Source: Patescibacteria group bacterium (GTDB lineage: Bacteria > Patescibacteriota > Patescibacteriia > UBA11705 > DATKZF01). Taken from it: 64,000 bases of DNA. A program made the translations under genes and the position numbers. Where the stretch lies: contig JBMORT010000008.1 in NCBI GenBank assembly GCA_049319825.1, positions 12,331 through 76,330 on the forward strand, given 5' to 3'. Below, piece by piece: positions 9,580 to 60,419 of this stretch (position 1 is the stretch's first letter; each line of letters begins with the position of its first letter). The notes beneath the pieces are model-generated. The model saw only the letters and a program-made list of their open reading frames with translations. It was not told the origin of the DNA and made no database searches.

Positions 9580-9678
9580 GGCGCCACCGCGTCTTTTTTT
9601 GATTTTTGGGAATAATTTGGTAAGATGAATTATCATGGATCACGTATCATGGATCATGTATCAATTTAATATTGTTAT

Positions 9679-9813
9679 GTTCCATGCTCCATGCTCCATG
9701 CTCCATGCTCCATGTTCCATGTTCCATGTTCCATGTTCCATGTTCCATGTTCCATGTTCCATGTTCCATGCTCCATGCTCCATGCTCCATGCTCCATGCT
9801 CCATGTTCCATGA
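9679..9813. repeat. perfect heptanucleotide tandem array (TCCATGC)4(TCCATGT)8(TCCATGC)5(TCCATGT)1 TCCATGA, 19 units, ending 10 nt before the mutS ATG
   Basis: Read directly; degenerate tcatggatca copies at 9640-9675 upstream of the array. Confidence 0.9.
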
Positions 9814-9823
9814 TTAATGACTT

Positions 9824-12379
9824 ATGCCCGAAACCCCAATGCTGAAACAATACAAAGAAATAAAAAAGAAGCACCAGGACGCAATCTTATTTTTTCGGCT
9901 GGGAGATTTTTATGAAATGTTCGGACCGGACGCCATTGAAGCCTCAAAAATTTTAAATATCACCTTGACTGCCAGAAATAAAGGCACGGAAAACGAAACT
10001 CCCATGTGCGGCGTGCCGTATCACGCGGTCGACGGCTACTTATCAAAGCTGACGCGGGCAGGTAAAAAAGTGGCTGTCTGCGAGCAGCTGTCAGATCCGA
10101 GCCTGCCCGGCATTGTGGAAAGAAAAGTAATCCGCACTGTCACTCCGGGCACGACTTTGGATGATAATATTTTGGACAATAAGGAAAATAATTATCTGGC
10201 TTCGCTGTCATTTTTAAAAAAGAGATGGGGCATGGCAGTGTGCGACCTGACTACCGGAGAATTCCAGGTCGGCGAATTCGAAGAGTTTGACATGCTGCAA
10301 AATGAAATTTTCAGGATCGCTCCGTCAGAAGTTCTGGTCACGCCGAGCCTTTTAAACAATTCGGATTTTCAAAATTTTTTTAGTAAATTAAAAAACGTCA
10401 ATTCGTTTCAGATCCCGAGCTTTGAGCAGCCGGCTGATTTTATTTTAAAGCATTTTAATCTGGCCGGCCTGGCCGGGTTTGGCATTGATCGGCTGGAGAT
10501 CGGCCAGACAGCGGCCGCGAATCTACTCGGATATTTGAAAGAAACACAGAAAACGGATTTGGAGCACATTACCAAAATGTCTTTGTACAATTCGCAAGAG
10601 TTTATGGCGCTCGATGAGGCGACGATCAGGAATCTGGAGCTTTACGGCACAGCGCAGGATTATCAGTACGAAGGCAGCTTGTTGTCGGTGATTGACCATA
10701 CTTCGACAGCCATGGGCGGCAGAAAGCTCAGGCGCTGGCTCAGGTATCCGCTGCTGAAAAAAGAGCCGATTGACCGGCGTTTGGAATCGGTGTCTGAGCT
10801 GGCTCGAGATATTGCCAGACAAGGTAAATTTATCGACACTTTGAAAAAAGTGGCTGACATGGAGCGCCTGCTCGGCCGCATCGGCTGCCAGCGCACGAAC
10901 GCGCGCGATTTGATCGCTTTGAAAAACTCTTTGCGCCAAGTGCCGAAGCTCAAGCAAATGCTGGCTGATTCCAAGGCTGAATTATTGCAAAAAATTTATG
11001 ATAATTTGGACGAGCAGATTGATTTGGTGCATTACCTTGAGCATGTGATCGAAGAAGAGCCGCCGGCGATCATCACTGAGGGCAACATGATAAAAAATGG
11101 ATTTAATAAAGAGCTTGATGAATTGCGCTCGATTTCCACCAATGCCAAAGACTGGATCAGCAAAATGCAGCAGCAGGAGATTAAAAGAACCGGAATCAAC
11201 ACCTTGAAAGTCAAATATAATAGAGTGTTCGGCTATTACATAGAAATCAGCAAGGCAAATTTAAATTCAGTGCCGGCTGATTACATTAGAAAGCAGACGC
11301 TGGTCAATGCCGAGCGCTTTATCACCCCGGAGCTTAAAGAATATGAAGAAAAAGTTTTGGGCGCTGAAGAAAAAATTAAAAAACTCGAGCAGGATTTATT
11401 TTTCGAAGCCAGGCAGGAGACGATCAAATATTTTCCTCAAATCCAAAATACGGCCGATCTGGTGGCTGAGCTCGACGCTTTGCTCGGGTTTGCCATATTG
11501 GCAGTTAAGGAAAATTATTCCAGGCCGGAAATTGTTCCGAAAAAAATTATTGAGATAAAAGACGGTCGGCATCCGGTGATTGAAAAATTTTCCGGCGAGT
11601 CTTTTGTGCCCAATGACGTTTATCTGGACCATGAGACGCATGAATTGATTCTGCTCACCGGCCCGAACATGAGCGGCAAGTCGAGTTACTTAAGACAGGT
11701 CGCGCTGATAGTTTTACTGGCGCAGATCGGCAGCTTCGTGCCTGCGGCTGAAGCGAAAATAGGTTTGGTTGACCGAATATTTACCAGAGTGGGCGCGGCT
11801 GATAATCTGATCCGCGGCCGGTCGACTTTTATGGTGGAAATGCAGGAAGCGGCCAATATTTTAAATAACGCGACGAAAAAAAGTTTGATAATACTCGACG
11901 AGCTCGGCAGAGGGACTTCAACTTATGATGGCGTGGGCATTGCCTGGGCAATAGTCGAATATATCCATAATAATATCGGCGCCTGCACATTGTTCGCCAC
12001 TCATTATCATGAGCTGATCGAAGTGATTGAAAATTTGAAGAAGGCGCAGAATTATTCAGTGGCGGTGACCGAAGACAATGGCAAAGTGGTTTTTTTGCGA
12101 AAAGTTTTAAAAGGCGGAGTCAATAAAAGCTATGGCATTGAAGTGGCCAAGCTGGCCGGCTTGCCGCCGGAAATCATTGACCGGGCCAATGAAGTTTTAA
12201 TCAAGCTGGAAAATGACAGGGAAGTGGACGTGGTGCGAAATTCCCAGCAGGCGGAAATGCTTTTTTTGCAAAAAGCCGAATCAGAGATTGAAAAAGACGT
12301 AAAAAATTTGGATTTGGATAATTTAACGCCTCTCGAGGCTTTGCAGCAATTGGTGGAATTTAAGAAAAAAATAAAATAA
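9824..12379 (+). CDS. mutS: DNA mismatch repair protein MutS
   Basis: N-terminal mismatch-binding domain (FFRLGDFYEMF), Walker A GPNMSGKS, DELGRGTS, 851 aa. Confidence 0.95.
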   Translation: MPETPMLKQYKEIKKKHQDAILFFRLGDFYEMFGPDAIEASKILNITLTARNKGTENETPMCGVPYHAVDGYLSKLTRAGKKVAVCEQLSDPSLPGIVERKVIRTVTPGTTLDDNILDNKENNYLASLSFLKKRWGMAVCDLTTGEFQVGEFEEFDMLQNEIFRIAPSEVLVTPSLLNNSDFQNFFSKLKNVNSFQIPSFEQPADFILKHFNLAGLAGFGIDRLEIGQTAAANLLGYLKETQKTDLEHITKMSLYNSQEFMALDEATIRNLELYGTAQDYQYEGSLLSVIDHTSTAMGGRKLRRWLRYPLLKKEPIDRRLESVSELARDIARQGKFIDTLKKVADMERLLGRIGCQRTNARDLIALKNSLRQVPKLKQMLADSKAELLQKIYDNLDEQIDLVHYLEHVIEEEPPAIITEGNMIKNGFNKELDELRSISTNAKDWISKMQQQEIKRTGINTLKVKYNRVFGYYIEISKANLNSVPADYIRKQTLVNAERFITPELKEYEEKVLGAEEKIKKLEQDLFFEARQETIKYFPQIQNTADLVAELDALLGFAILAVKENYSRPEIVPKKIIEIKDGRHPVIEKFSGESFVPNDVYLDHETHELILLTGPNMSGKSSYLRQVALIVLLAQIGSFVPAAEAKIGLVDRIFTRVGAADNLIRGRSTFMVEMQEAANILNNATKKSLIILDELGRGTSTYDGVGIAWAIVEYIHNNIGACTLFATHYHELIEVIENLKKAQNYSVAVTEDNGKVVFLRKVLKGGVNKSYGIEVAKLAGLPPEIIDRANEVLIKLENDREVDVVRNSQQAEMLFLQKAESEIEKDVKNLDLDNLTPLEALQQLVEFKKKIK

Positions 12380-12382
12380 GGG

Positions 12383-12493
12383 CAGGGCGCGGGGCGGGCA
12401 TACGCCCGCGTAGGGACAGAATATCTGTCCCTACCGCAGGCAGAGGTAAAGCCGAATTCGGATTCGGCTTTACCTCTGCCTGGCCGCGCCCTG
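12383..12493. repeat. GC-rich cloverleaf palindromic element, copy 1 (outer 10-bp stem plus three perfect hairpins of 6, 11 and 21 bp), followed by a T6 run
   Basis: cagggcgcgg...ccgcgccctg outer stem; hairpins gcgggc-atac-gcccgc, gtagggacaga-ata-tctgtccctac and caggcagaggtaaagccgaat-tcgg-attcggctttacctctgcctg. Confidence 0.85.
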
Positions 12494-12542: not shown

Positions 12543-12571
12543 TTGACAAAATCATCATTATTTGATATACT
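12543..12571 (+). promoter_or_regulatory. sigma70-type promoter (TTGACA, 17-bp spacer, TATACT) firing into the GC-rich island
   Basis: cccTTGACAaaatcatcattatttgaTATACTgcataca; consensus -35, optimal spacer, near-consensus -10. Confidence 0.45.
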
Positions 12572-12577
12572 GCATAC

Positions 12578-13358
12578 ACTGAACCTTGAATTACATTTCC
12601 CCGCGGTTTTGGATCGCCCCGACCTTCATACCAGAAAATTGATGGGGCGGAACTTCACATTACCCGCGGGTTTCTTAGATGATAAACCCAAAGCCATAGC
12701 CTGCCGCGTCAAATCGGTCGGGCGAGTGAGGACGCGCGGATGTAGTTGCTGAGCCTCCGTGGCAGAGGGTTTTCATAGGGATGCTAGCTCTCCCTGACCA
12801 TACGGCTGCGTTTCGCGGTTGGAAGGGGTGCATCTGCACGATGCCACTGCACTTCGATGGTCGAAACTAGCTTTCCTTTGGTGCCAACGCCTTCTGGCGT
12901 TTGCATGGGGCTTTGGCAGCTCCTTAGATAACCGGCAAGAGGGCCTTCTTGTCGGGGTAAATCTGAGAGCTTCCAGGGCTCTCAGAGATGGTAAGCTTCG
13001 GCGAGCCATTCATGCGCCACCTCCAGTCCCATCGCCGGAAAAAATGCGCGGACAGGAAGGCTGCCGGTGAAAGTCGCGAGGGGGGACGGCTCTCTCCACG
13101 CGTCATGTGAGCTGGCAGAGTTAAGCCACACGATTGCCGCAGATACTCCGGATCTGCGGAGCCGCTTTCGTGAGGTGAGCGCGATGCCATGATCGCTGTT
13201 TGGCGACTGGCTGAGTGCTACTGGTTCCCTCGGGAGGAATCGCCTGGGGGAATTTACGTCCGGAGGGTAGGCCCACCCAAAGGACACAAAAAAAACGCGC
13301 AATGCGCGTTAAGATAAACGAGACGTTTCTTCACAGAGGCGTCTCGATTTCGTTTAAA
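12578..13358 (+). ncRNA. candidate structured non-coding RNA of unassigned class (~780 nt, ~60% GC, no credible ORF), or non-coding cargo of an inserted element
   Basis: Sharp GC jump from ~40% to ~60%. Only short, mutually overlapping ORFs on both strands. A dedicated promoter lies upstream and a hairpin plus U-rich tail at 13322-13358. Many local helices, e.g. CCCGCGG...CCGCGGG at 12600-12670. Confidence 0.35.
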
Positions 13359-13362
13359 AAAA

Positions 13363-13473
13363 CCGGGCGCGGGGCGGGCATACGCCCGCGTAGGGACAGA
13401 ATATCTGTCCCTACCGCAGGCAGAGGTAAAGCCGAATTCGGATTCGGCTTTACCTCTGCCTGGCCGCGCCCTG
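13363..13473. repeat. GC-rich cloverleaf palindromic element, copy 2 (identical to copy 1 except the first bases of the outer arm)
   Basis: Same three hairpins as 12383-12493, located 58 bp upstream of mutL. Confidence 0.85.
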
Positions 13474-13530: not shown

Positions 13531-15390
13531 ATGGGAATCATAAAAGTATTGCCACAAGACATCATTAACCAAATCGCTGCCGGCGAAGTGATCGAGCGAC
13601 CGTCTTCTGTCGTTAAAGAATTGGTGGAGAACAGCCTGGACGCCGGCGCTTCCACCATTGAAATAGAGATTAAAAACGGCGGCCTGAATTTAATTAAGGT
13701 TATCGACAATGGCAGCGGTATGTCCGGAGAAGACGCACTGCTGAGCGTTAAGCAGCATGCCACCAGTAAGATTTCATTGATCGATGATCTGTTCAGGATC
13801 AGCTCTTTTGGATTTCGAGGTGAAGCCCTCGCCTCGATCGCTTCTGTTTCAAAATTTTCTCTCCAAACAAAAGACCAGGATTCGATTTCTGGAAATCGAA
13901 TAACAATTTATAATCAGGAAGTTAGATCAGCGTCCGTCGGCTGCCCCCAGGGCACTTGCGTTTCGGTTGAAGATCTGTTTTATAATGTGCCGGCCAGGAA
14001 AAAATATCTAAAGACGGTCAGCACCGAATTTAATCACATATTGGAATTGTTTACCAGGTTCGCTTTAATTCACGGGAAAGTCAGCTGGAAATTAATTCAT
14101 AACGGTAAAACTGTGTTTCATTTACCGTCAACACCCAAATGGCTCGAGCGTATTGAGTTGCTTTTGGGGGAGCGGATTGCGCAAAATGTGTTCGGCCTCA
14201 GAATAAACATGCTAGATGTTGAGTTTAACGGTTATCTGGGGAAGCCTCAAATCGCTTCAAAGTCGCGAGCCAACCAATTTTTATACATTAACAAGCGCCC
14301 GGTCAACGAGCATATTATTTCAAAAAGCGTTAAAGATGCTTTTCAAACTTTGATTCCCCGCGACTATTATCCCGTTTACTTGATGAATTTGCGCATAGAT
14401 CCATTCAAGCTTGACGTTAATGTCCATCCGCGAAAACTCGAGGTGCGTTTTTCAGAGCCGCAAACCGTGTATCGCAGCGTTTATCGAGCGGTTAGCGCCA
14501 CACTGGATAAAAATAATTTGGTAAAAACGATTTATACTCCCGCTCCGATTGAACAGGCGGAGAATCAGCTGGAAAAAACCGGTTTTTTCGACATTAAAAG
14601 CGCGCTTGAATCAAAAAGCAGGGATTTGAAAATGCCAAGTCCCGGACAGATTAAGCGGGCAGTTGATTTCAACCATTCCATGTACGCGCTGCCTAAAAGC
14701 GCTCGTCGGCTGATGCCCGGCGATAAGATCACCGTAAGTTCAGCAGAACCAATGGCAGTCAAATTTCAGCCGGTGGAATTTAAACAGGAAAAAATAGAAT
14801 TGGTTCGCGAAGAAGATGTTTGGAAAATCATCGGCCAAATTAAAAATTCATATATAATAGTGGAAACCGGCGAAGGATTAAAAATTATCGACCAGCACGC
14901 CGCCTCGGAGCGCGTCCAGTTTGAAAAAATCATCAGCTCATGGAAAACCGATAAGCTGCGGTCTCAAAGTTTGTTGCTGCCGGTCTTGATCGATATGTCA
15001 TCGCTCGAAATGGCTAAAATTCATAAATATCAGTCTCAGCTCAATCGATTGGGTTTTTCCATTGATGTGTTTGGAGAAAACACCGTTAAAATAAATGCGG
15101 TCCCGGCGCTGTTAAAAAATTCCGATATCCAAAAGTTGTTTTTTGAAGTTGCGGCGGAGCTTGATGATCGCATCAATAACGGCGAATTGACCGAACCAAT
15201 AAGAAAAATATTAAACATCTTGTCGTGTCGCAGCGCTGTTAAATTTGGCGACGATCTAACACTCGACGAAATGAAGTCGCTGATCGCGCAGCTTCGATCC
15301 TTGGATAATCAATACACCTGCGTCCATGGTCGGCCGGCCATAATCGATATGAGTTATGGCGAACTGGAAAAATTGTTCAGCCGCAAGTAA
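13531..15390 (+). CDS. mutL: DNA mismatch repair protein MutL
   Basis: GHKL ATPase N-terminus IAAGEVIERPSSVVKELVENSLDAG, DNGSGM; 619 aa. Confidence 0.95.
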   Translation: MGIIKVLPQDIINQIAAGEVIERPSSVVKELVENSLDAGASTIEIEIKNGGLNLIKVIDNGSGMSGEDALLSVKQHATSKISLIDDLFRISSFGFRGEALASIASVSKFSLQTKDQDSISGNRITIYNQEVRSASVGCPQGTCVSVEDLFYNVPARKKYLKTVSTEFNHILELFTRFALIHGKVSWKLIHNGKTVFHLPSTPKWLERIELLLGERIAQNVFGLRINMLDVEFNGYLGKPQIASKSRANQFLYINKRPVNEHIISKSVKDAFQTLIPRDYYPVYLMNLRIDPFKLDVNVHPRKLEVRFSEPQTVYRSVYRAVSATLDKNNLVKTIYTPAPIEQAENQLEKTGFFDIKSALESKSRDLKMPSPGQIKRAVDFNHSMYALPKSARRLMPGDKITVSSAEPMAVKFQPVEFKQEKIELVREEDVWKIIGQIKNSYIIVETGEGLKIIDQHAASERVQFEKIISSWKTDKLRSQSLLLPVLIDMSSLEMAKIHKYQSQLNRLGFSIDVFGENTVKINAVPALLKNSDIQKLFFEVAAELDDRINNGELTEPIRKILNILSCRSAVKFGDDLTLDEMKSLIAQLRSLDNQYTCVHGRPAIIDMSYGELEKLFSRK

Positions 15391-23910: not shown

Positions 23911-23939
23911 TGACACATTGATTTTCGTTTGGTATCATA
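23911..23939 (+). promoter_or_regulatory. candidate promoter (TTGACA, 17 bp, TATCAT) followed by a ~140-nt leader upstream of rplJ (possible L10 autoregulatory leader)
   Basis: TTGACAcattgattttcgtttggTATCAT; the long leader contains GGCCTCGCCGGCTTAAAAAACGACCTTGCC. Confidence 0.3.
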
Positions 23940-24085
23940 TACTCACATACAAATACCGCAGACAGCAAGGGCCTCGCCGGCTTAAAAAACGACCTTGCCT
24001 AGGTAAAGCAAAATTTTGCTATTTTTCGCGGTATTTTCAATGCCGTTTTTTATTTAATTATTTTATTAAGATATCTATAATTTAT

Positions 24086-27568: not shown

Positions 27569-29710
27569 CTACAAATGCTTCATCCCCACCGTCCACACTT
27601 TCGCGTCCCCGATTATGTAAATCTTTTTATTTTTTTCATCAATAACCAAGCTGTCAATCTCATTGATATTGTCTACTTGATATTGGACGACGTTCAGTCC
27701 TTGCTTGCTTAAAACAATCACGCGCCGTGTCGGCCGATCGATCAGATACAGAAAACTTGAATCTTTGTCCGTGTAAATATAATCAGCGCTTTGGATGGCC
27801 GGTTCGATTTTTTGAACGCTGAATGTTTGCTTTTTGCCGCTTAAAAATTTGATGATATTGCCATTTGCCGTCAGTACATAAATATCACCGTCAATGGCTA
27901 TCGAATTGGCGCCGGATAAATTAGTTTGATCGCCGATCCATTCCGTCGCGGCGCCCAGCGAAGTGCCGCCCATGCCGCGTAATTTATAGATTTGATTTTC
28001 ATCAGAGGATAGAATGTATAAATTGGTGTTGTAAATTTTGAAATCATCGGCGGGGTGGCCGAACTCAATATCCATTTTTTTCAGTGATGTGTTTTCCGTA
28101 GAATATAAATAACTATCTCCGTTTTGAAAAAGGATAAGCAGATCCGATTGATCAAAAGTATTGATGGCCGATACGGTGGAATCAGATTCGGTATCTATTG
28201 TTTCTTTGACTTGTCCGCTTTTTACATCGATTATCAATACTTTATTGCCGGCTCCCAAAGCTAAAATTTGATCGTTCACCAGACAGGCGGCGTTCGCTTG
28301 GCTGATGCCAGGCAATGAGGCCAGAGCGGTCGCGGCCGTGTCTTCCAGTTTTAATAATTTATTTTGTAGTGATTCGTATTGGCTTTTGATCGATTCGTTT
28401 TTCTGTTTTTGCGCGTCGCTGTCTTGCGGCAGTTTCTTAATCAGCTCGTCGGCTTCCGTCAACAATGACAGGCTTTTTTCGGTGTTTCTGAACAAAAACG
28501 CCGCCTCAGCTTGATTTAGTTTGTCCTCAATTTGAGTAATCGATTGCGTGTACGCCTGGTCTTGTTTTTTTTCTTGCCTTGATTGATAAAGCCAGACAAT
28601 GCTTAAGGCGAAGGCAATCACCAGCGCGCCGATAACCGGCAACAAAATTTTTAATGAAATTTTCGGTTTTTGTGTCGCCGCTGCGTCGGTTTTATCAACA
28701 CCGGTTGCGGCTGGAGCAGACACGGAAAATATGTTCATTTTTTTTAATATTTTTTTAAGTAAGTGGCCAGATGTCCCGGCTCTGATTTCATCGATAATCA
28801 CGCCTTTGGGCTTCTTTTTGAAGGCCAAGAATGATTTTAGCCGGTGTCCGCAATTCTTAATTTTCTGCATGATATTGATGCCAATCGCCGGTGTCAGATA
28901 TTTTTCCGTGTTTTCTTGCGTGGAAACCAAACTGCTGATTGATTTTTGCGAAGCGTGGTCCTGTTCGAATAAATTTATGTCTTCTTGCTTGATAAAAATC
29001 GCCGAGTAGCTGCGACCGTGGTTTTTTAGCCTTTTTTGCAGCAGGACGTTAAAATCCTCGACAAATTCTCTGATCGGCCGGCTGGTCACCAGCTGGTTCA
29101 TTTTTTCAGTTGAAAAAAATCGCGCGAAAGTTTCATTGGAAATAATTAGCGTGTCCGGTCTGAATATTTTTCCGGAGATAATGCTGTTGAAAATTTTTAC
29201 TTTATTGAATTGTTCAGCCGGAGCATTGGTCAAAATATCAATGATTTTATAGTTGGCTTTTTTTGTTTTGTGCACCAGATAGCATTGCATTGAACCGCGC
29301 TGACTGATAATGACGCCGGTATCGGCTTCTTCCTGTTTGACCACCGCCACCAGGAAATTGAAATTTTCCAAAATCAGCTGAATTTGTCCGTTTTGAATGA
29401 GTTGGATTACTTGTTCATTGGTTTTTTGCAGGGCATGTTCAAAAACAGCCTCTAAATTAAGCTTTTTAGGGTCTGGCGAGGTGATCACCTGGCGATAATA
29501 ATGATCTTTTAGCGTGGAAATTATGGTTTGCGAAATTTTCTGACCCTGCTGAGTCGGGGTGGCATTAATTTCGATAATGCCCAAAATATGGCCACCATAG
29601 TTTTCTTTTCCTTCGGGAAAAATAATGAAATTTTCGCAAAAATAATCACTCCCGACCGCTTGCGGGGGCAGAAAAATTTCCTCTATCCTGAGGGCTTTTT
29701 GTTTATCCAT
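27569..29710 (-). CDS. large membrane-anchored hypothetical protein with an N-terminal globular domain and C-terminal beta-propeller-like repeats (likely start MDKQKAL at 29710; ORF track extends to 29785)
   Basis: Central TM helix KILLPVIGALVIAFALSIVWLY; C-terminal repeated YxL/IxxDG-like blades. Confidence 0.5.
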   Translation of the reverse strand: MDKQKALRIEEIFLPPQAVGSDYFCENFIIFPEGKENYGGHILGIIEINATPTQQGQKISQTIISTLKDHYYRQVITSPDPKKLNLEAVFEHALQKTNEQVIQLIQNGQIQLILENFNFLVAVVKQEEADTGVIISQRGSMQCYLVHKTKKANYKIIDILTNAPAEQFNKVKIFNSIISGKIFRPDTLIISNETFARFFSTEKMNQLVTSRPIREFVEDFNVLLQKRLKNHGRSYSAIFIKQEDINLFEQDHASQKSISSLVSTQENTEKYLTPAIGINIMQKIKNCGHRLKSFLAFKKKPKGVIIDEIRAGTSGHLLKKILKKMNIFSVSAPAATGVDKTDAAATQKPKISLKILLPVIGALVIAFALSIVWLYQSRQEKKQDQAYTQSITQIEDKLNQAEAAFLFRNTEKSLSLLTEADELIKKLPQDSDAQKQKNESIKSQYESLQNKLLKLEDTAATALASLPGISQANAACLVNDQILALGAGNKVLIIDVKSGQVKETIDTESDSTVSAINTFDQSDLLILFQNGDSYLYSTENTSLKKMDIEFGHPADDFKIYNTNLYILSSDENQIYKLRGMGGTSLGAATEWIGDQTNLSGANSIAIDGDIYVLTANGNIIKFLSGKKQTFSVQKIEPAIQSADYIYTDKDSSFLYLIDRPTRRVIVLSKQGLNVVQYQVDNINEIDSLVIDEKNKKIYIIGDAKVWTVGMKHL

Positions 29711-29886
29711 AGCTCGAAATTGACTGCTCAACTGTACTTGTATTATACTATAAATAGATAAAAAGGGGAAATATCTGGCAATCAAATTCAGGCATCAAGT
29801 GTCGAAACAATAAAAAATATTGTTCAGGAGTATTGTCGGGAAATTGAGGGGAATTCGGACAATGTATTTGATGTCTTGGCAAGAGA

Positions 29887-31972: not shown

Positions 31973-31987
31973 AGACGTAGAAATTGG

Positions 31988-32100
31988 TTGTTTGGAAAAT
32001 AGAAAATAGTAATGGAAATTTGCAAATAGAAATTGGTTTTAAATACTATTTTCCACTTTCTATTTTCTAATACCAATTTCCAATTTCTAAACAACCAGTT
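31988..32100. repeat. ~110-bp AT-rich imperfect palindrome (tagaaattggttgtttggaaaatagaaaatag ... ctattttctaataccaatttccaatttctaaacaaccagtttcta)
   Basis: Inverted repeat read directly; lies between the Ldt gene and the tsaB fragment. Confidence 0.5.
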
Positions 32101-32108
32101 TCTATTAT

Positions 32109-34270: not shown

Positions 34271-35116
34271 ATGGAAACCACAAAAATCGCTTTATTCAAA
34301 GGGAAAAAGATTAGGAAAACACTCTTTCAAAATGAATGGTGGTTTTCTGTTATTGATGTTGTGCAAGCGCTTACTGATCAAGCCGATGATTATATTGCTA
34401 GAAAATATTGGAATAAACTTGCTCAAAGATTAAGAGAAGAAGGAAGCGAGGTGGTGACATTTTGTCACCGACTGAAATTAGAAGCGTCTGATGGGAAAAA
34501 ATATGAAACCGACTGCGCCAATACAGAAGGAATTTTTCGCATAATTCAGTCAATTCCTTCTCCAAAAGCCGAGCCCTTTAAACGCTGGCTGGCAAAAGTC
34601 GGTTATGAACGGGTGCAAGAAGTTGAAAATCCGGAATTGGCGACCAAGCGCACGAGGATGCTTTATAAGTTGAAAGGCTATCCTGACGATTGGATTGAAA
34701 ATAGAATGCGCGGCATCGCTATTCGCGAGGAATTGACAGACGAATGGCAAAATCGCGGAGCCCGCGAGCAGAAAGATTATGAAATTTTAACGGCTGAGAT
34801 ATCAAAGGCGACTTTCGGCATTACTCCAAACGAATATAAAGAACTCAAGGGATTGAAACGGGAAAACCTGCGCGATCATATGGACGATTTTGAATTGATT
34901 TTTACCATGCTGGGCGAAAGAGCGACGACTGAAATACATCGGACTGAAGATTCCCAAGGCTTGAATAAATTAAAATCAGACGCCAAAGCTGGCGGAGATA
35001 TTGCCGGCGGAGCCAGAAAGAAACTGGAAAAGCGGTTGGGAAAGCCTGTAGTTTCTAAAGATAATTTTTTGCCTTCTTCCAGAAAAGATGGATATTATAT
35101 AAATGATACAGATTGA
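34271..35116 (+). CDS. Bro-N domain protein (DinD / phage antirepressor-like)
   Basis: N-terminal FQNEWWFSVIDVVQALT Bro-N signature; overall resemblance to DNA-damage-inducible protein D family. Confidence 0.6.
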   Translation: METTKIALFKGKKIRKTLFQNEWWFSVIDVVQALTDQADDYIARKYWNKLAQRLREEGSEVVTFCHRLKLEASDGKKYETDCANTEGIFRIIQSIPSPKAEPFKRWLAKVGYERVQEVENPELATKRTRMLYKLKGYPDDWIENRMRGIAIREELTDEWQNRGAREQKDYEILTAEISKATFGITPNEYKELKGLKRENLRDHMDDFELIFTMLGERATTEIHRTEDSQGLNKLKSDAKAGGDIAGGARKKLEKRLGKPVVSKDNFLPSSRKDGYYINDTD

Positions 35117-35968: not shown

Positions 35969-36027
35969 TCCATGCTCCATGCTCCATGCTCCATGCTCCA
36001 TGCTCCATGTTACATGATACATGACAT
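35969..36027. repeat. heptanucleotide array (TCCATGC)5 TCCATGT TACATGA TACATGA running directly into the mraZ start codon (catATG)
   Basis: Read directly; same unit as the mutS-upstream array. Confidence 0.85.
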
Positions 36028-41344: not shown

Positions 41345-42277
41345 ATGAATCACAAAATAATTTTAGGAATTGCCGGGGGAATAGTGATTGCCGCGCTGGG
41401 GTTTGGAGTTTATTTGGCTGTCACCAATTTTTCGATTATTAAAAATATTGACTTGGGTCAAGACGCGGATGAGGGAAAAATCGAAAATTTCGACGAGTGC
41501 GCGGCCGCGGGCAATCCGGTGATGGAAAGCTATCCGCGCCAGTGCCGCACGGCCGACGGCCGGCTTTTTGTGGAAGAGATTGACGAGGATGAGTGGGAAT
41601 TTGATTCTGAGTGGGGAGTCGATTACGAGGTCCGTGGCTGCGATGAGGAAAAGCTTCGCGATCCGCTGGCGCAAGAAAAAAAAGACAGAATAGCCGACAT
41701 GACCATTGACGGCAATTATGTAAATTTCACGCATTATTTGAATTATGTTTGCTGCGCTGATATTGAAGTGGAAATAATGGATACAGTCGTCGAAGATGAT
41801 AAAACGACAATTAAATTGCTTGAATCAAATACCGGTGAAATGTGCCGCTGCGTCTGCGATTATGAAGTCGACATCACTCTCGGCTATCTTGATCCCTTCA
41901 AATATACAGTTGAAATGTACGGCGTCGAATTCGAAGGCGAACAAGAGCCGCAGCTTCTCTGGTCAAGAGATTTTCAAATCATTGAATCAGAAGAAGACGG
42001 AGCCGGCATCGGCCTGGCGAATCCGGCTTCAGCGTATTGCCAGGATTGGGGCGGCACTGTGGATATTCGGCATTTTATCGACGGGGATAAGGGATTCTGC
42101 CTGTTTGAGGACGGTTCTGAATGCGAAGAATGGGCATTTTATCGTGATGAATGCTGGGACGGAGAGGTTTTTTGCAAAGATTTATGCGGTGACGGCCAGT
42201 GCCGGGAAATAGTCTGTGAAGCGGTCGGGTGTCCGTGCTCGGAGACAGCCGAATCGTGCCCTGCAGATTGCCAATAA
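41345..42277 (+). CDS. membrane-anchored acidic Cys-rich protein with a DUF333-like (putative hemolysin) C-terminal domain
   Basis: TM ILGIAGGIVIAALGFGVYLAV; ANPASAYCQDWGGTVDI...GFCLFEDGSECEEWAFYRDEC matches the NPAS-YC / C-F-DGS-C-EW-F-R-C pattern of DUF333; 23 Cys. Confidence 0.5.
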   Translation: MNHKIILGIAGGIVIAALGFGVYLAVTNFSIIKNIDLGQDADEGKIENFDECAAAGNPVMESYPRQCRTADGRLFVEEIDEDEWEFDSEWGVDYEVRGCDEEKLRDPLAQEKKDRIADMTIDGNYVNFTHYLNYVCCADIEVEIMDTVVEDDKTTIKLLESNTGEMCRCVCDYEVDITLGYLDPFKYTVEMYGVEFEGEQEPQLLWSRDFQIIESEEDGAGIGLANPASAYCQDWGGTVDIRHFIDGDKGFCLFEDGSECEEWAFYRDECWDGEVFCKDLCGDGQCREIVCEAVGCPCSETAESCPADCQ

Positions 42278-42622
42278 CGTAAAATAACGCAAAATAACGC
42301 CAAAATAACGCAACATAACGCCAAAATAACGCAATATAACGCAACATAACGCCAAAATAACGCAATATAACGCAACATAACGCCAATATAACGCAACATA
42401 ACGCAAAATAACGCAATATAACGCAACATAACGCAAAATAACGCCAAAATAACGCAATATAACGCCAAAATAACGCAATATAACGCAACATAACGCCAAA
42501 ATAACGCAATATAACGCAACATAACGCCAATATAACGCAAAATAACGCAATATAACGCAACATAACGCAAAATAACGCCAAAATAACGCAATATAACGCC
42601 AACATAACGCATATAACGCCCG
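42278..42622. repeat. degenerate minisatellite, ~33 units of 10/11 bp (AAAATAACGCA / AAAATAACGCCA / ATATAACGCAAC), starting at the stop codon of the preceding gene
   Basis: Read directly; mean period ~10.5 bp. Confidence 0.9.
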
Positions 42623-42642
42623 GGTAAAACCGGGTTTTGTTT
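42619..42642 (+). terminator. rho-independent terminator (cccgg-gtaaaac-ccggg + ttttgtttc) at the end of the minisatellite
   Basis: Read directly. Confidence 0.4.
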
Positions 42643-42644
42643 CT

Positions 42645-42763
42645 GGCCGATTCACGGCCGGCGCACGCGCCGGCCGCAGAGACGCGCCGCGGCGCGTCTC
42701 TGCACCGGACATGGTAAAACCGAATTCGAATTCGGTTTTACCATGTCCGGCCATGAATCGGCC
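42645..42763. repeat. GC-rich cloverleaf palindromic element, copy 3 (diverged sequence, same architecture: outer stem ggccgattca/tgaatcggcc plus three perfect hairpins, the last a 24-bp palindrome with two GAATTC sites)
   Basis: cggccggcgc-ac-gcgccggccg; cagagacgcgccgcggcgcgtctctg; ccggacatggtaaaaccgaattcgaattcggttttaccatgtccgg; shares the ggtaaaRccgaattcg core with copies 1 and 2. Confidence 0.8.
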
Positions 42764-49593: not shown

Positions 49594-49613
49594 ATAATTA
49601 TGGAAACAGGCCC

Positions 49614-49662
49614 GCGGCTTGCAGGAACGCAAAATTTCGTGTGCCTGCAAGCCGCATTTTTA
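49614..49662 (+). terminator. terminator-like 12-bp GC hairpin (gcggcttgcagg-18 nt loop-cctgcaagccgc) plus attttta after sodA
   Basis: Read directly. Confidence 0.4.
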
Positions 49663-49663
49663 T

Positions 49664-49750
49664 CCGCGCGGGCGATGCGCGTTCGCGCCTGGCAGGAACA
49701 CAAAATTTTGTGTTCCTGCGCGCCCGCCGGTGGCGGGCCGCCCGCGCGGC
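49664..49750. repeat. GC-rich palindromes related to the preceding hairpin (28-bp perfect palindrome gcaggaacacaaaattttgtgttcctgc; gcccgcc-ggt-ggcgggc)
   Basis: Read directly; loop sequence aacRcaaaattt shared with the terminator hairpin. Confidence 0.6.
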
Positions 49751-49758
49751 AATACATT

Positions 49759-50382
49759 ATGCAAAATTTAACAAATAAAATCCAAGAATTGAAAAAATCG
49801 CCGGTTAAAAATCAAATTGACCGGCGGATTTCGGAATTTAAAAAAGCGGGCAGAGGATCGGATGATGAGGTTTTTAAGGAATTATGTTTTTGTCTGCTGA
49901 CCGCCAATTCCACGGCCCGGCAGTGCCTCCGGGTTCATTCTCTGGTCGGCGATGGGTTTTTAAATTTGCCCGAAAATAAATTGCAAAAAGTTTTAAAGCA
50001 ATGCGGCGCCAGGTTTCATACTAAGCGCGCCCATTATATCGCCCTGGCGCAAAAGCATAAGAATGAGTTGAAGGAGTTAATGAAAAAGCTGAATGAATTT
50101 GAATTGCGGAACTGGTTGGTTGAAAATATCAAGGGGTTGGGGTGGAAAGAAGCCAGCCATTTTCTCCGCAATATTGGCTATGATGACTTGGCCATCATTG
50201 ACTTTCACATTATCGATATTTTGGAAAAAGAAGGCTTGATCGAGCGGCCAAAATCTTTGAATAAGAAAAATTATTTGGAAATTGAAAATATTTTGCGCCA
50301 GATCGGGCAGAAGGCCGGATTGAATCTGGCTGAGCTTGATTTGTATTTATGGTATCTGGAAACTAATACCGTTTTGAAATAA
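49759..50382 (+). CDS. HhH-GPD 8-oxoguanine DNA glycosylase/lyase (archaeal-type Ogg); start at MQNLTNK
   Basis: Helix-hairpin-helix GLGWKEASHFLRNIGYDDLAIIDFHIIDIL with a catalytic Lys/Asp context. Confidence 0.6.
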   Translation: MQNLTNKIQELKKSPVKNQIDRRISEFKKAGRGSDDEVFKELCFCLLTANSTARQCLRVHSLVGDGFLNLPENKLQKVLKQCGARFHTKRAHYIALAQKHKNELKELMKKLNEFELRNWLVENIKGLGWKEASHFLRNIGYDDLAIIDFHIIDILEKEGLIERPKSLNKKNYLEIENILRQIGQKAGLNLAELDLYLWYLETNTVLK

Positions 50383-57167: not shown

Positions 57168-60100
57168 TTATTTTTTTATCTTTTTTATGGCCTTCGCGCC
57201 TATTTTCGGCGCTTTGTATTTACGCGAAGCTCGGAATGTTCTTTTATTCCAAATCGCCACGACTGGGCTTTTGCCGTCAGGATTCCAATTCGAGTAATTA
57301 TTGAAATTTGTTTCCGGTTCATTAACCAATTCGACTTTTTTGTTCTTTGAAAAGTTTTTTTGATAATACGCGGATACTGTCGGTCGGTTGGAAGATGAAT
57401 GGCTCGCGCCGTCTAACGGCAGAGCCACGATGTCAATTTTTCTTCTTTGCGCCGTTTCTTTCGCGTATTTAATAATTTCCTTTATTAGCGCGTCGCCATT
57501 TACCCGGCCCAGCAAATTTTCTCTTGGATTATTAGCCCTGATGTTTAAAACCTTTTTTCCGTCAGGCGTTTTTGTCTCGATAAATAAAACCGAACCGTCA
57601 ATGCGTTCCTGAGCTTTATTTCGATTGGTCACGATATTGATGCTGGTTATCCCCGGGAATTCGCCTTTGGCCAGCATGTCATGTTGCGAAGTGTAACACG
57701 CGTCGCCAATGTCTCCGGAAAAGACGCGCAAAAGTCCTTTGGCGGACACGAGAGCGATTTCGGTTTTTTTCTTGGTGATTTTACCTTGTTCTGATATTTG
57801 CTGCAGTTGCGCGTTTGTTTGATGTATCAGATGCTTTGCCGGATCTTCTCTTGTCTGCCAGACATCTTCCAATGTTTTACGCAATTTATTGCTGAAAGGA
57901 GAGTGATAAGCGTGATGCTGTTTTTGTTCCGGATGCAAATAATGTTCATTGATGAATTGCAATAATAAATCTGACATTTGTGAAATATCTTGCTTTGTCG
58001 CCTCGCCCTCGCCGGCGGCCAGAGAATCAAAGTGACTCCGCCAGCCGTCTGGAATGATTTTCTTAAGATGAAACGCTGACATGACCTGCAAGGCGTTTTT
58101 TGCCTCTTTGATGTCTGCCAGATCGCTCATAAATTGCACGACTTCTTCTTCGGACGCGTCTTTTTTTATTTCCAGCCCCTCTACCGCGCTTAAAGTGTTT
58201 TCCAAATTTTCAATGCTTTTTTGGATTCCTTTGTTGGCTTTGTCCGGAACTTCGCTTAATTTAGCGCGAGCTTTTTCAAGTTTTTCTGACAGCGTTCCCT
58301 TTATTAATTCCTTTTGCCCTTGCCAATAGCCATTGACATCCTCGATTTTTGATCCTTCTTTCATGGCATCGCGCAGATTTTCAAACATGGCCTGCAAGGT
58401 TTTATTTTCAAGAAGCGCATTTTCCCTTGTGTTTTTTTCTTCATCTGATATCTTGATAGCTTCAGTTTCGGAGATTTCGATCGGTTTTTCTTCATAGCCT
58501 TCTGGCAATTCGGCCAGCTGAGGGATTTCCGCCGCTGTTTTTCGCCAGACATTGATTAAGTTTGACATCGATCCCATTCCTGCCCATTTGGTAGTTCCTT
58601 TTAAAGCCCCGAGCACCTCGATTCCCAGCGCGGTATCTATTTTAGCAGGGATTTTGTCTCGGAGAAGCTCTTGTTGCAGCTTTCTTTTAAAATTTCTAAT
58701 TTCATTTATAACTCCATCCGGAGTTTTGAATTTCTCAAGACTGCCGACGGCTTCTTCCAAATTCTTTCTGGTGTTAGGCTCCAATTCGGAAAGATCTGTA
58801 ATTTTTTTTAATTCCACATAGCTGCCGCACAGCAAAGGCATATTAAACGCCCCGAATTCTTTAATGAAAGACAAAAACATTTCTCCGTCTTCTGTTTTTT
58901 CTAAAGATAGGCGGTTTTCGTCAGTCATTTGTTTTAGCAGAGGCTGAATTTCTTTTGTCCATGGGCAATGGTTTTCATTAGCTGAAAAATCTTGAATATC
59001 GCGCAATTTTATCACTGGCTTTTCCCAGGCGAGGCTGGCTAATACCTGCGGATAAGAGAATAATTTTTTCATTGATGTTTTTGACGCTGCTTCGGCCAGT
59101 TGTTTTTGCTGTTCAGGTGAAGGCGGTAATTTTCCCAGATTATTTAGAAGTTCTAAGGGATCCTCTTGGATTAATTTATTGATAAGTGTATTTTGTTGCT
59201 CGAGCGAGAGGCTTAACTTTTTCAGGGCTGAAAGCATTGCGATGGGATTTTTTTTAATCAGATTTTCGATGAGGTCATTTCGCTGTTTCTGGGAAAAGGC
59301 AAAGTCTTTCAAATGCTGAAGGAGAATGGATGGGGTTTGTTCGATAAGTTTATCGACGAGGCGACTCATTTGGTCATGGGGAATATAAATTTTCCCTATG
59401 TAATTAAGAAGTTCTGCTGGATGCTTTTGAATCAAGGCGTCTATCAGATTATTTTGTTGTTCCGGGGAAAGAGTGAGTTTGTCCAGATCGCGTAGAAGAT
59501 CGGCAGGATATTGATTTGTTAATTCATCAATAAGCCTGTTTTGCTGCTCTGGAGAAATAGTAAGTTTTGATAGAAACGACGGGACTTTTTTAGGGGAATA
59601 TATTATTAATAATTCCGCAAATTCTTCTTGCGTTACGGCAAGCTTTTGAAGATTTTCGAACGCGGTTTCGGGGTCGCGTTGTATAAATCGGTGGATATTT
59701 TCTTTTATTTCCTCGGGTTTTAAATTAAGTTTGTCAGAAAATTTTAATACGGCGATAAAATGGTAACGTATCAGCGTATCTTTGATTTTTTCTAAATCTT
59801 CAGGTGAGAGAACCTTTATCAAATTTTCTACATAATGGCTTCCGCCATATGGTTTCCATATGTTGAGTACTTTGCTAATAATTTTTTCTTTTTGATCGGC
59901 GGAAATTCCCTTTCGTCCCAGATGGTCTATTAAGGAATCCGCGTTTTTATCTATCGCGCGATCTACTAATTCATTTTCCGAAATACCAAAAGCGGCTAGA
60001 TTTGTAAAAATGTTATCAATTTTTCCATTTATAATACATCGATCAATAAGATCAGACTTTTGCTCAGGTGATAAATTAAAGTTTGTTATGTTTTTTGATA

Positions 60101-60419
60101 AATATTCATAATTTTCGATAATCGCGATTTCTACAAATTTCTCAGATGATAAACCTAATTTATCCAGAGAACCGAGAACCATGTCCGGGGCGGATTTTAA
60201 TAGCGCTTTTTGAAAATGTTGAATATTATCAGGTGATAACTCAAGTGAAGAAAAGTTGTCAATAAAATATTTTGAGCTCTTTTCATTTATTTTTGAAATC
60301 ATGTCGTCCTCAATATTCTGCTTTACTTGCGAATGTTTTATTTTTTTGACTAGCGCTACCGCGTAATCCGGGTTATTTTTCGTTAGAAATTGCAGCTCAT
60401 TGTAAAATTTATCTCTCAT
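57168..60419 (-). CDS. giant hypothetical protein (1083 aa) with ~8 tandem ~30-aa helical repeats (LSPEQQNxLIDxLIxKxPxxLL)
   Basis: Repeats read in the translation; no catalytic motif recognised. Confidence 0.6.
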   Translation of the reverse strand: MRDKFYNELQFLTKNNPDYAVALVKKIKHSQVKQNIEDDMISKINEKSSKYFIDNFSSLELSPDNIQHFQKALLKSAPDMVLGSLDKLGLSSEKFVEIAIIENYEYLSKNITNFNLSPEQKSDLIDRCIINGKIDNIFTNLAAFGISENELVDRAIDKNADSLIDHLGRKGISADQKEKIISKVLNIWKPYGGSHYVENLIKVLSPEDLEKIKDTLIRYHFIAVLKFSDKLNLKPEEIKENIHRFIQRDPETAFENLQKLAVTQEEFAELLIIYSPKKVPSFLSKLTISPEQQNRLIDELTNQYPADLLRDLDKLTLSPEQQNNLIDALIQKHPAELLNYIGKIYIPHDQMSRLVDKLIEQTPSILLQHLKDFAFSQKQRNDLIENLIKKNPIAMLSALKKLSLSLEQQNTLINKLIQEDPLELLNNLGKLPPSPEQQKQLAEAASKTSMKKLFSYPQVLASLAWEKPVIKLRDIQDFSANENHCPWTKEIQPLLKQMTDENRLSLEKTEDGEMFLSFIKEFGAFNMPLLCGSYVELKKITDLSELEPNTRKNLEEAVGSLEKFKTPDGVINEIRNFKRKLQQELLRDKIPAKIDTALGIEVLGALKGTTKWAGMGSMSNLINVWRKTAAEIPQLAELPEGYEEKPIEISETEAIKISDEEKNTRENALLENKTLQAMFENLRDAMKEGSKIEDVNGYWQGQKELIKGTLSEKLEKARAKLSEVPDKANKGIQKSIENLENTLSAVEGLEIKKDASEEEVVQFMSDLADIKEAKNALQVMSAFHLKKIIPDGWRSHFDSLAAGEGEATKQDISQMSDLLLQFINEHYLHPEQKQHHAYHSPFSNKLRKTLEDVWQTREDPAKHLIHQTNAQLQQISEQGKITKKKTEIALVSAKGLLRVFSGDIGDACYTSQHDMLAKGEFPGITSINIVTNRNKAQERIDGSVLFIETKTPDGKKVLNIRANNPRENLLGRVNGDALIKEIIKYAKETAQRRKIDIVALPLDGASHSSSNRPTVSAYYQKNFSKNKKVELVNEPETNFNNYSNWNPDGKSPVVAIWNKRTFRASRKYKAPKIGAKAIKKIKK

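Follow-up and report, generated by a model that had tools for sequence, protein, structure and literature searches.

What is the cloverleaf-shaped element at positions 42645-42763 of this 64,000-nt stretch of Patescibacteria DNA (contig JBMORT010000008.1; the whole stretch is called the window below), and how do its stems stay perfectly paired while sequence varies from one such element to the next? An initial annotation, made from the sequence alone, had described it as the third copy of a structure-conserved repeat family. We find four cloverleafs in the window, CL1 to CL4, of which the element in question is CL3. They are not a gene, and are best read as a variant of the repetitive extragenic palindrome (REP) and bacterial interspersed mosaic element (BIME) kind. 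Specifically, we put at roughly one half the probability that they are REP/BIME-like, non-autonomous mosaics of small perfect palindromes that are maintained at the level of DNA and look mobile. The units are discrete; they have been gained and lost, copied locally (CL1 and CL2, and a copy in the sod terminator loop beside CL4), and flipped or reordered between genomes. They lie at the 3′ ends of open reading frames (ORFs), and in two instances an ancestral intrinsic terminator holds them in its loop. This is a small and tractable case in which palindromic units are acquired, duplicated, inverted and nested inside terminator loops with their arms always complementary, and it bears on two old questions: how repeats of the REP/BIME type spread, and how palindromes remain perfect.

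Cloverleafs as mosaics of palindromic modules

As single-stranded DNA (ssDNA), CL3 folds into a four-way junction of -64.9 kcal/mol, compared with a mean of -29.3 for dinucleotide shuffles (z = -10.9; 0 of 200 shuffles were equally stable). The RNA fold has the same topology, and the minimum-energy fold contains 51 Watson-Crick pairs and no G-U pair. The four-armed architecture proposed in the initial annotation is borne out: a 10-bp outer stem (GGCCGATTCA/TGAATCGGCC, 42645-42654 and 42754-42763) encloses a 10-bp hairpin h1 (42655-42676), a 28-nt perfect palindrome h2 (GCAGAGACGCGCCGCGGCGCGTCTCTGC, 42676-42703, 13-14 bp), and a 23-bp hairpin h3 (42705-42750) with the tip GGTAAAACCGAATTC/GAATTCGGTTTTACC. 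The core claimed for the tip of the long hairpin, GGTAAARCCGAATTCG, is likewise present: counting both strands of three hairpins, the window has six occurrences where 0.13 would be expected.

CL1 (12383-12493) starts 4 nt after the mutS stop codon. Its outer stem (CAGGGCGCGG/CCGCGCCCTG), followed by T6, encloses h1 (GCGGGC-ATAC-GCCCGC), h2 (GTAGGGACAGA-ATA-TCTGTCCCTAC) and a 21-bp h3 with an GGTAAAGCCGAAT tip, and the DNA fold reaches -60.7 kcal/mol (z = -13.0). CL2 (13365-13473), between the terminator of a non-coding RNA (ncRNA) gene and mutL, is an exact 109-nt copy of 12385-12493 located 980 nt away; despite this identical block, the flanks of CL1 and CL2 are unrelated, and no T-run follows CL2. 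A Logan contig from the same organism breaks inside CL2, as expected for a repeat. The count of three copies needs revision: a fourth cloverleaf, CL4, lies at 49664-49749 between sod and ogg, ending 9 nt before the ogg ATG. CL4 has an 11-bp outer stem (CCGCGCGGGCG/CGCCCGCGCGG), a small h1 (49677-49688), a 28-nt perfect palindrome h2 (GCAGGAACACAAAATTTTGTGTTCCTGC, 49692-49719) and a 7-bp h3 (49722-49738); its region folds with z = -6.7, and its architecture is that of CL1-CL3 without the long hairpin. Just upstream of CL4, the sod terminator (49614-49661, + strand; hairpin GCGGCT..AGCCGC at 49614-49655, then TTTTT) carries in its loop a degenerate copy of the GCAGGAAC..GTTCCTGC palindrome.

These elements stand out from their surroundings. 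The cloverleafs have a GC content of 65-66% against 43% for the window, which holds 18 perfect hairpins with stems of at least 9 bp where shuffles hold 0-5. Across 2.54 Mb of collected sequence, there were 47 clusters of abutting perfect hairpins against 1 in shuffles, and a structural descriptor scan of the same sequence placed clusters of three hairpins inside an outer stem in this clade and no other. Upstream of the window, a further 8.65 kb contain no hairpin cluster and no additional element, which gives four elements at three loci in the 72.6 kb sampled from this genome.

What the four have in common is a set of modules. The constant one is the central palindrome of about 28 nt, G[T/C]AG[R][R]AC...GT[Y][Y]CT[A/G]C, with arms of 11-14 bp and a freely varying tip; it reads GTAGGGACAGA-ATA-... 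in CL1 and CL2, GCAGAGAC... in CL3 and GCAGGAAC... in CL4. A second module, the GGTAAA.CCGAATTCG-tipped hairpin, is common to CL1, CL2 and CL3. CL3 is homologous to CL1/CL2 in h2 (GTAGGGACAG.. versus GCAGAGACGCG..) and in the core of h3, and nowhere else; apart from these 30 nt of h3 and the h2 foot G[T/C]AG[G/A]GAC, the copies are barely alignable (78 identities versus 68.4 ± 2.9 in shuffles). The outer stems of CL1/CL2, CL3 and CL4 are mutually unrelated and the flanks show no consistent duplication; CL3 shows no more than a possible CT on both sides. The initial annotation was thus right that architecture is kept while sequence varies, but the differences are mostly a mosaic of modules and not the compensatory drift of homologous stems that it had proposed.

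Gain, loss and perfect pairing in relatives

To place these elements, we compared the window with six relatives sharing 75-81% identity in MutS, the antiporter or Ogg; for MutS, the close relatives reach 75-80%. The family is not limited to the window: L083 has two members and L086 one. At the site after mutS, a cloverleaf is present in the window, L083 and L086; L087 has a plain hairpin there, CAGGG-AGCG-CCCTG followed by T7, and L211 and L212 have no cloverleaf. In the alignment, the outer stem and T6 of CL1 are homologous to this plain mutS terminator of L087. The L086 cloverleaf has no unpaired junction bases; its outer stem CGGGACGCG, followed by T7 and flanked by A5/T5, encloses GCGCGGCGCCGT/ACGG.., GTAGAGACGCGCCG/CGGC.. 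and ATCATGCGCG/CGCG... Its h2 matches that of CL3 at 26 of 28 positions, and the h2 of CL1 is of the L083 type. The post-mutS cloverleaf of L083 (L083A) contains CL1's three module types in reversed order: first a 20-bp hairpin tipped by CGAATTCGAATTCG, next GTAGGGACAGAATA.., and last a small GC hairpin. ATTTTTA follows its outer stem. A second, different cloverleaf occupies the pre-mutL site of L083. Because the L083 elements are identical in independent NCBI, JGI and ENA assemblies, an assembly artefact is excluded.

The other sites show the same turnover. The CL3 site, in the spacer between a DUF333 gene and an antiporter gene, is empty in L208 and L335, with the right flank CTGTTTATAA conserved, and the CL4 site between sod and ogg is empty in L335. 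The sod terminator stem GCGGCT/AGCCGC with ATTTTTAT is common to L335, where its loop is ordinary; in the window this loop holds the 28-mer. Palindromes are, to judge from these alignments, now in the loops of two ancestral terminators, those of mutS and sod. Such gain and loss at orthologous sites indicates that the cloverleafs are accessory and lineage-specific. Their GC content, 54-74% in genomes of 34-45% GC, also sets them apart. Relatives carry a second palindrome family, [C/G][C/T]TACTTTTTGGCGCCAAAAAGTA[G/A][G/C], at L212 3345-3370, L335 5602-5627 and L087 12436-12453; a shorter form, GCTTTTGGCGCCAAAAGC, also occurs. One copy is inside the mutS coding region of L087.

The position of these elements could mean that they are purely host-functional terminators or insulators that evolved in place, shielding against read-through around the strongly promoted ncRNA gene, and are not mobile. 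CL1, the L086 element and L083A do resemble intrinsic terminators, with a GC-rich closing stem and the T-run given above directly after the mutS stop codon, and positional and partial sequence homology links them to the plain terminators of relatives such as L087. Their folds are extremely stable, and CL1 is followed, about 50 nt downstream, by a near-consensus promoter. However, they differ from ordinary terminators in the 95-nt three-hairpin insert in their loop, and termination does not explain the sequence-conserved modules, which recur in other genomes and phage contigs. CL2, CL3 and CL4 lack a proper T-run (just TGTTTAT follows CL3) and adjoin separate ordinary terminators, which makes them redundant as such. 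At CL3 this is a small conventional hairpin at 42619-42638 (+ strand; CCCGG-GTAAAA-CCGGG, then TTTT), so CL3 is not needed there as a terminator; L335 has a plain terminator at the matching position. Furthermore, relatives do without cloverleafs at all four sites, and evolution in place does not account for an exact 109-nt copy with unrelated flanks. On balance, we find this explanation unlikely. Within the REP/BIME-like reading, the terminator-nested elements (CL1, L086, L083A) probably still act as a very stable 3′-end hairpin that terminates or insulates transcription, and CL2, CL3 and CL4 are more likely tolerated passengers or intercistronic mRNA hairpins.

The pairing itself speaks to the level at which the elements are maintained. 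Of the 226 pairs in five independent cloverleafs, 223 are Watson-Crick and 3 are G-U, the three being at L083 loop edges; CL1 and CL3 together have none in 99 pairs. The structured RNA between CL1 and CL2, 100 nt away, has many G-U pairs, several of them invariant, and covariation in 8 of 36 pairs. This difference between close neighbours points to maintenance at the DNA level, in line with one of the two options that the initial annotation drew from the perfect stems, and argues for cloverleaf stems that behave as DNA palindromes, in which both strands must pair, and not as RNA helices under selection. Hairpin tips also diverge symmetrically while the foot is conserved. Quasipalindrome correction is established work, and on that basis we propose that, as hairpin-prone DNA is replicated, templated correction from one arm to the other keeps the two identical; such correction would explain symmetric tip divergence without G-U pairs.

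The 28-nt palindrome in other genomes and in phages

Two features went beyond what the initial annotation had seen: the elements lie in or next to terminators directly after stop codons, and their central module is widespread in uncultured phage contigs. Outside the clade, the module also occurs alone. In a Falkowbacteria metagenome-assembled genome (L006), lone 28-mers at 114-141 and 2796-2823 lie upstream of mutS and of mutL, each between promoter-like sequence and the ATG, and the two differ by a compensated G:C to A:T change. In L083, L086 and L006 the palindrome reads GTAGGGAC... or GTAGAGAC....

We searched IMG/VR with the pattern GTAGRGAC-N(6-14)-GTCYCTAC and with a scrambled-arm control. 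The raw number of viral matches is uninformative, being similar in the control, and only length distribution and inner palindromy separate the two patterns; the figures for phage contigs given here all refer to the matches listed. Exactly 28 nt was the length of 74 of 133 matches, versus 15 of 120 in the control, and 21 of 133 were perfect palindromes, versus 3 of 120. The consensus is GTAGAGACGC-N8-GCGTCTCTAC, with inner bases that vary yet remain self-complementary, and the 8-10-bp foot is conserved across genomes of GC 0.37 to 0.64. Judged by these comparisons, the 28-mer core is in all appearance a real and widespread family. Of 49 distinct phage-contig sites, 29 lie 3′ of a long open frame, at most 25 nt from its stop codon. 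As the next gene follows and T-runs are rare, these are intercistronic hairpins and not canonical terminators, which again speaks against a purely terminating role. Extra third arms or partial arm duplications stand beside some phage copies. When the ORFs within 2.5 kb of the 28-mers at 54 loci were compared all against all, no linked protein family recurred. A 28-mer had no BLAST match in 50,697 isolate phage genomes, although a short palindromic query makes this a weak test. The same 28-nt core in phage contigs hints at a shared enzyme or at a route of exchange between phage and host.

The h3 module is much more restricted. The form GGTAA..CGAATTCGAATTCG..TTACC is found only in this clade, plus one related hairpin in an unrelated metagenome contig; a 26-nt h3 core pattern had no match in GTDB representative genomes, and neither a looser h3 pattern nor a further one matched viral contigs. 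The metagenome contig found with the looser pattern (L002, JADMIO010942117.1) was rejected as a family member, since it comes from a different organism and its 22-28-nt palindromes are unrelated; we treat it as a parallel phenomenon. It is of higher GC and contains, at 300-960, a 650-nt non-coding field of at least 11 perfect palindromes of 22-30 nt spaced 30-60 nt apart, with tips that include CCGAATCGATTCGG, CTGCAACGTTGCAG and CCGAAACGTTTCGG; one palindrome, TGGTAAAACCGAATCGATTCGGTTTTACCA, resembles CL3 h3. A phage-like IMG/VR contig (L175, 8300-8460) has a GTAG 28-mer between units of a type I-E-like CRISPR repeat (CGTTCCCCGCACACGCGGGGATGAACCG, three copies). This locus is in a structural-gene spacer and its spacer lengths are irregular; it could be a mini-array with the palindrome in one of its spacers, or just one more mosaic of hairpin units.

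A palindrome with so constant a foot might instead be the site of a conserved dimeric protein, an operator in DNA, or in RNA one for translation or processing, that co-regulates mutS, mutL, ogg and phage genes, with the extra hairpins as accessories. This would suit the conservation of the foot over that range of GC, the third arms beside some phage copies, the position of the lone L006 28-mers between promoter-like sequence and ATG, and the fact that three of the four cloverleafs abut repair genes: the 3′ end of mutS (9824-12379), the 5′ end of mutL (13531-15390) and the 5′ end of ogg (49759-50382). The repair-gene association is post hoc and could be coincidence; it draws on three loci, for which the chance probability is roughly estimated at about 0.02. 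CL3 adjoins an antiporter gene, and close relatives lack the elements in orthologous repair-gene spacers. Nor does a double-stranded operator require the variable inner 8-12 nt to remain palindromic, and no regulator gene is linked. We regard an operator as very unlikely. REPs inside DNA-repair genes are also on record (PMC3733652).

A different possibility is that template switching during replication, at hairpin-prone terminators, produced the cloverleafs locally and de novo, as neutral by-products that have no function and need no dedicated enzyme. Perfect arms without G-U pairs would follow naturally, as would palindromes nested in terminator loops, the partial arm duplications beside phage copies, and nearby duplicate modules such as CL1 and CL2 or the sod-loop copy by CL4. 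De novo palindromes should, however, use local sequence, whereas unrelated loci and genomes share the GTAGRGAC foot and the GGTAA..CGAATTCG tip, and the elements are far richer in GC than the 34-45% GC genomes that hold them. These recurrences make template switching alone quite improbable.

Known systems and the genomic setting

Which known system do the cloverleafs most resemble? Of the analogies drawn in the initial annotation, REP/BIME fits best. Members of the GTAG-tagged REP superfamily carry a GTAG foot on stems of 6-13 bp with loops of 2-4 nt, are found less than 20 bp away from the 3′ end of an ORF where neighbouring ORFs are co-directional or convergent, form sub-families with complementary stem changes, and occur as dimers and in groups or composite structures (PMC3733652). 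The units described here are alike in having a GTAG (GYAG) foot on a GC-rich stem-loop (stems of 6-14 bp, loops of 0-4 nt), in their intergenic position within about 20 nt of the 3′ end of the upstream ORF between co-directional genes, and in lacking coding capacity. They also form sub-families with complementary changes, and different palindromic units are combined in composite clusters, three per cloverleaf. The differences are equally clear. The tag of published GTAG REPs is left unpaired and occurs at a single end, and their stems often include G-T pairs (PMC3733652); here the tag is paired with a 3′ CTAC to give a full two-fold palindrome that is the same on both strands, and G-T pairs are absent. 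BIMEs alternate REPs with linkers of 20-100 nt, whereas our units abut (0-3-nt spacers) inside an outer inverted repeat; the cloverleaf host belongs to the Patescibacteria, and the core unit is also present in phage contigs. GTAG-tagged REPs and BIMEs have been linked to REP-associated tyrosine transposases (RAYTs) (PMC3733652; PMC2817692).

In this Patescibacteria lineage the core hairpin directly or almost directly adjoins one or two further GC-rich palindromes, and because an 8-11-bp inverted repeat encloses these modules, a single DNA strand or an RNA copy folds into a four-way junction. We propose that spread would occur in trans, through an unlinked enzyme that acts on folded ssDNA and recognizes the GTAG-footed hairpin, with hairpin tips as preferred entry points. 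The closest precedent for this hypothetical mobilizing enzyme would be a RAYT-type HUH tyrosine nuclease.

Several points weigh against reading the cloverleafs as mobile elements of the REP/BIME kind. Copy number appears low, at 4 in 72.6 kb, compared with hundreds per genome, typically more than 100, for classical REPs, and the paired tag and absent G-T pairs depart from the published type. No RAYT was found among the 48 window ORFs or in the relatives' loci. By Pfam, the window ORFs are housekeeping genes and include no transposase, integrase, recombinase or reverse transcriptase, in agreement with the initial annotation, which had noted no transposase or integrase nearby; the Pfam-annotated genes of the relatives' loci include no Y1 transposase (Y1_Tnp), integrase, reverse transcriptase or other transposase either, and the 8.65 kb upstream of the window likewise show neither transposase nor integrase. 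Since the outer stems differ and there is no clear target-site duplication, a single end-recognizing transposase is unlikely. The use of the same post-mutS site in three lineages could reflect ancient residence with rapid in-situ turnover and not repeated insertion. Against a terminating or insulating role, a T-run in the phage contigs follows only 1 of 26 of the 28-mers among the matches listed. Given the paired tag, the absence of G-T pairs, the apparently low copy number and the lack of a visible RAYT in the sequence sampled, membership of the REPs proper is not established.

In a further reading, the cloverleafs and the lone 28-mers would be substrates of an undescribed, non-RAYT, hairpin-specific DNA mobilization system common to Patescibacteria and uncultured phages. 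Such a system would insert perfect palindromes into existing hairpin tips, as in terminator loops, and so produce nested four-way junctions; in an operator variant, the 28-mer would be an operator or RNA element linking repair genes and phage operons to one binding protein. Even with this variant included, we hold the idea to be improbable.

Candidate-phyla-radiation bacteria have tiny, repeat-poor genomes, and we know of no REP-like repeats described in them; a keyword literature search returned none, and searching full texts for the arm sequences yielded primers and cloning sites but nothing else. Small mobile hairpin elements are known from organelle genomes, among them the GC clusters of yeast mitochondria and the double-hairpin elements of chytrids. 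Repetitive hairpin-forming elements are also described for organelle genomes of sponges (PMC2800124). Such organelle elements resemble the cloverleafs as GC-rich, intergenic palindromes in AT-rich genomes that are defined by structure, polymorphic in presence and absence, and without a known dedicated enzyme. Hosts and sequences differ, and neither a conserved GTAG foot nor cloverleaf nesting is reported for them.

Other candidates fit less well. Miniature inverted-repeat transposable elements (MITEs) such as Correia elements or Rickettsia palindromic elements are likewise non-coding, intergenic, bounded by inverted repeats, about 100-150 nt long and able to fold. They were rejected because the outer inverted repeats differ between copies, leaving no shared terminal repeats, and there is no consistent target-site duplication; the cloverleaf interior, moreover, consists of independent perfect palindromes and not of a degenerate transposon body. 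A tRNA-like gene was rejected because ARAGORN (tRNA, tmRNA) found nothing at the cloverleafs and Rfam gave no match at gathering score for them or for the relatives' spacers, only chance-level matches to miRNA hairpins (E = 0.04-5). A retron msr/msd is not compatible with perfect stems, as the msd hairpin is imperfect, and the window has no reverse transcriptase. A Xer/dif-like site was set aside because outer arm positions are conserved and inner ones variable in the 28-mer, the opposite of the pattern of dif sites.

The attC sites of integrons, another analogy of the initial annotation, deserve separate mention because of what lies between CL1 and CL2. In one explanation, the cloverleafs are attC-like folded-DNA recombination sites that captured the ncRNA gene as a cassette, CL1-ncRNA-CL2: identical direct copies flank a discrete, 870-nt promoter-to-terminator unit, structure is conserved while sequence varies, and folded ssDNA is a plausible substrate in both. 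Nevertheless, cloverleaf stems are perfect and form a four-way junction, in contrast to the single bulged hairpin of attC with its extrahelical bases, and the window shows no integrase and no cassette array. The core sites RYYYAAC / GTTRRRY (R″/R′) are absent from the four cloverleafs and from the 15 nt around them. Relatives largely refute this explanation, since all six have the ncRNA gene between mutS and mutL, those that carry a single cloverleaf or lack one included, and we consider it highly improbable.

Although CL1 and CL2 flank the ncRNA gene (12543-13356, + strand), it does not depend on the cloverleafs. Its sigma-70 promoter is near-consensus (TTGACA-17-TATACT, 12543-12571), it ends in an intrinsic terminator hairpin (13319-13346), and it is present in the relatives whether or not a cloverleaf is; across the clade it measures about 400-1100 nt. 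Homologues are at L087 12660-13226, L212 3615-4377, L211 4344 to the contig end, L086 12735-13138, and L083 12750-13875 and 13920-14320. The core domain has the form GGGCTTTGGCAG..AGATAACC-helix-GGGCCT-helix-GGTAAATC-helix-GAGATGGTG..CGCCACCT, in which the 8 covarying pairs of 36 are compensatory changes and G-U pairs are invariant. It matches no Rfam family and may be a new large RNA class, which could exceed the cloverleafs in interest.

The MutS protein and the gene neighbourhood place the host in the Patescibacteria (candidate phyla radiation); the closest MutS proteins among GTDB representative genomes, at 50-60% identity, are labelled Peribacteria, Peregrinibacteria, Falkowbacteria and Buchananbacteria. 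Proteins 100% identical to those of the window carry the annotation 'Patescibacteria group bacterium'. Flanking genes are co-directional at all four cloverleafs. CL3 follows a 10-nt tandem array and the small terminator, and precedes the antiporter gene. The array (42273-42619, + strand; about 34 units of AATAACGCAA) is not part of the element; it begins directly after the DUF333 stop codon and has 10/11-nt variants and a 134-nt higher-order period. With about 5 units in the orthologous spacer of L335 and none in that of L208, it is a recent expansion.

CL4 has a consequence for annotation, as it is the cause of a spurious 53-codon N-terminal extension of the deposited ogg, and cloverleafs also break short-read assemblies, as in the Logan contig. 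The deposited protein (P0241, 260 aa) starts 53 codons early and reads through CL4 and the sod terminator (49600-49758); homologues are 197-228 aa long, and in the extended protein the Pfam domain starts at residue 73. Around mutS, stand-alone GIY-YIG nuclease genes (95-123 aa) recur upstream in relatives (L083 5943-6233 and 8412-8699, L087 7185-7493, L211 1133-1504), with no link to the palindromes seen, and a heptamer tandem repeat, ATGTTCC x19, lies just before the window's mutS (9677-9812).

A second heptamer repeat, TCCATGC x6, lies just before mraZ (35969-36009). Between an L,D-transpeptidase-like gene and the next ORF there is a 127-nt AT-rich imperfect inverted repeat (31978-32104), internally repetitive, with 63-nt arms that are 75% complementary. 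Two large ORFs on the minus strand, 27569-29785 (738 aa) and 57168-60419 (1083 aa), have no Pfam match, and a protein with the phage-associated BRO-N domain is encoded at 34271-35116. The sole Rfam family above gathering score in the window is the ribosomal protein L10 leader (RF00557), at 23938-24061 with 58.6 bits.

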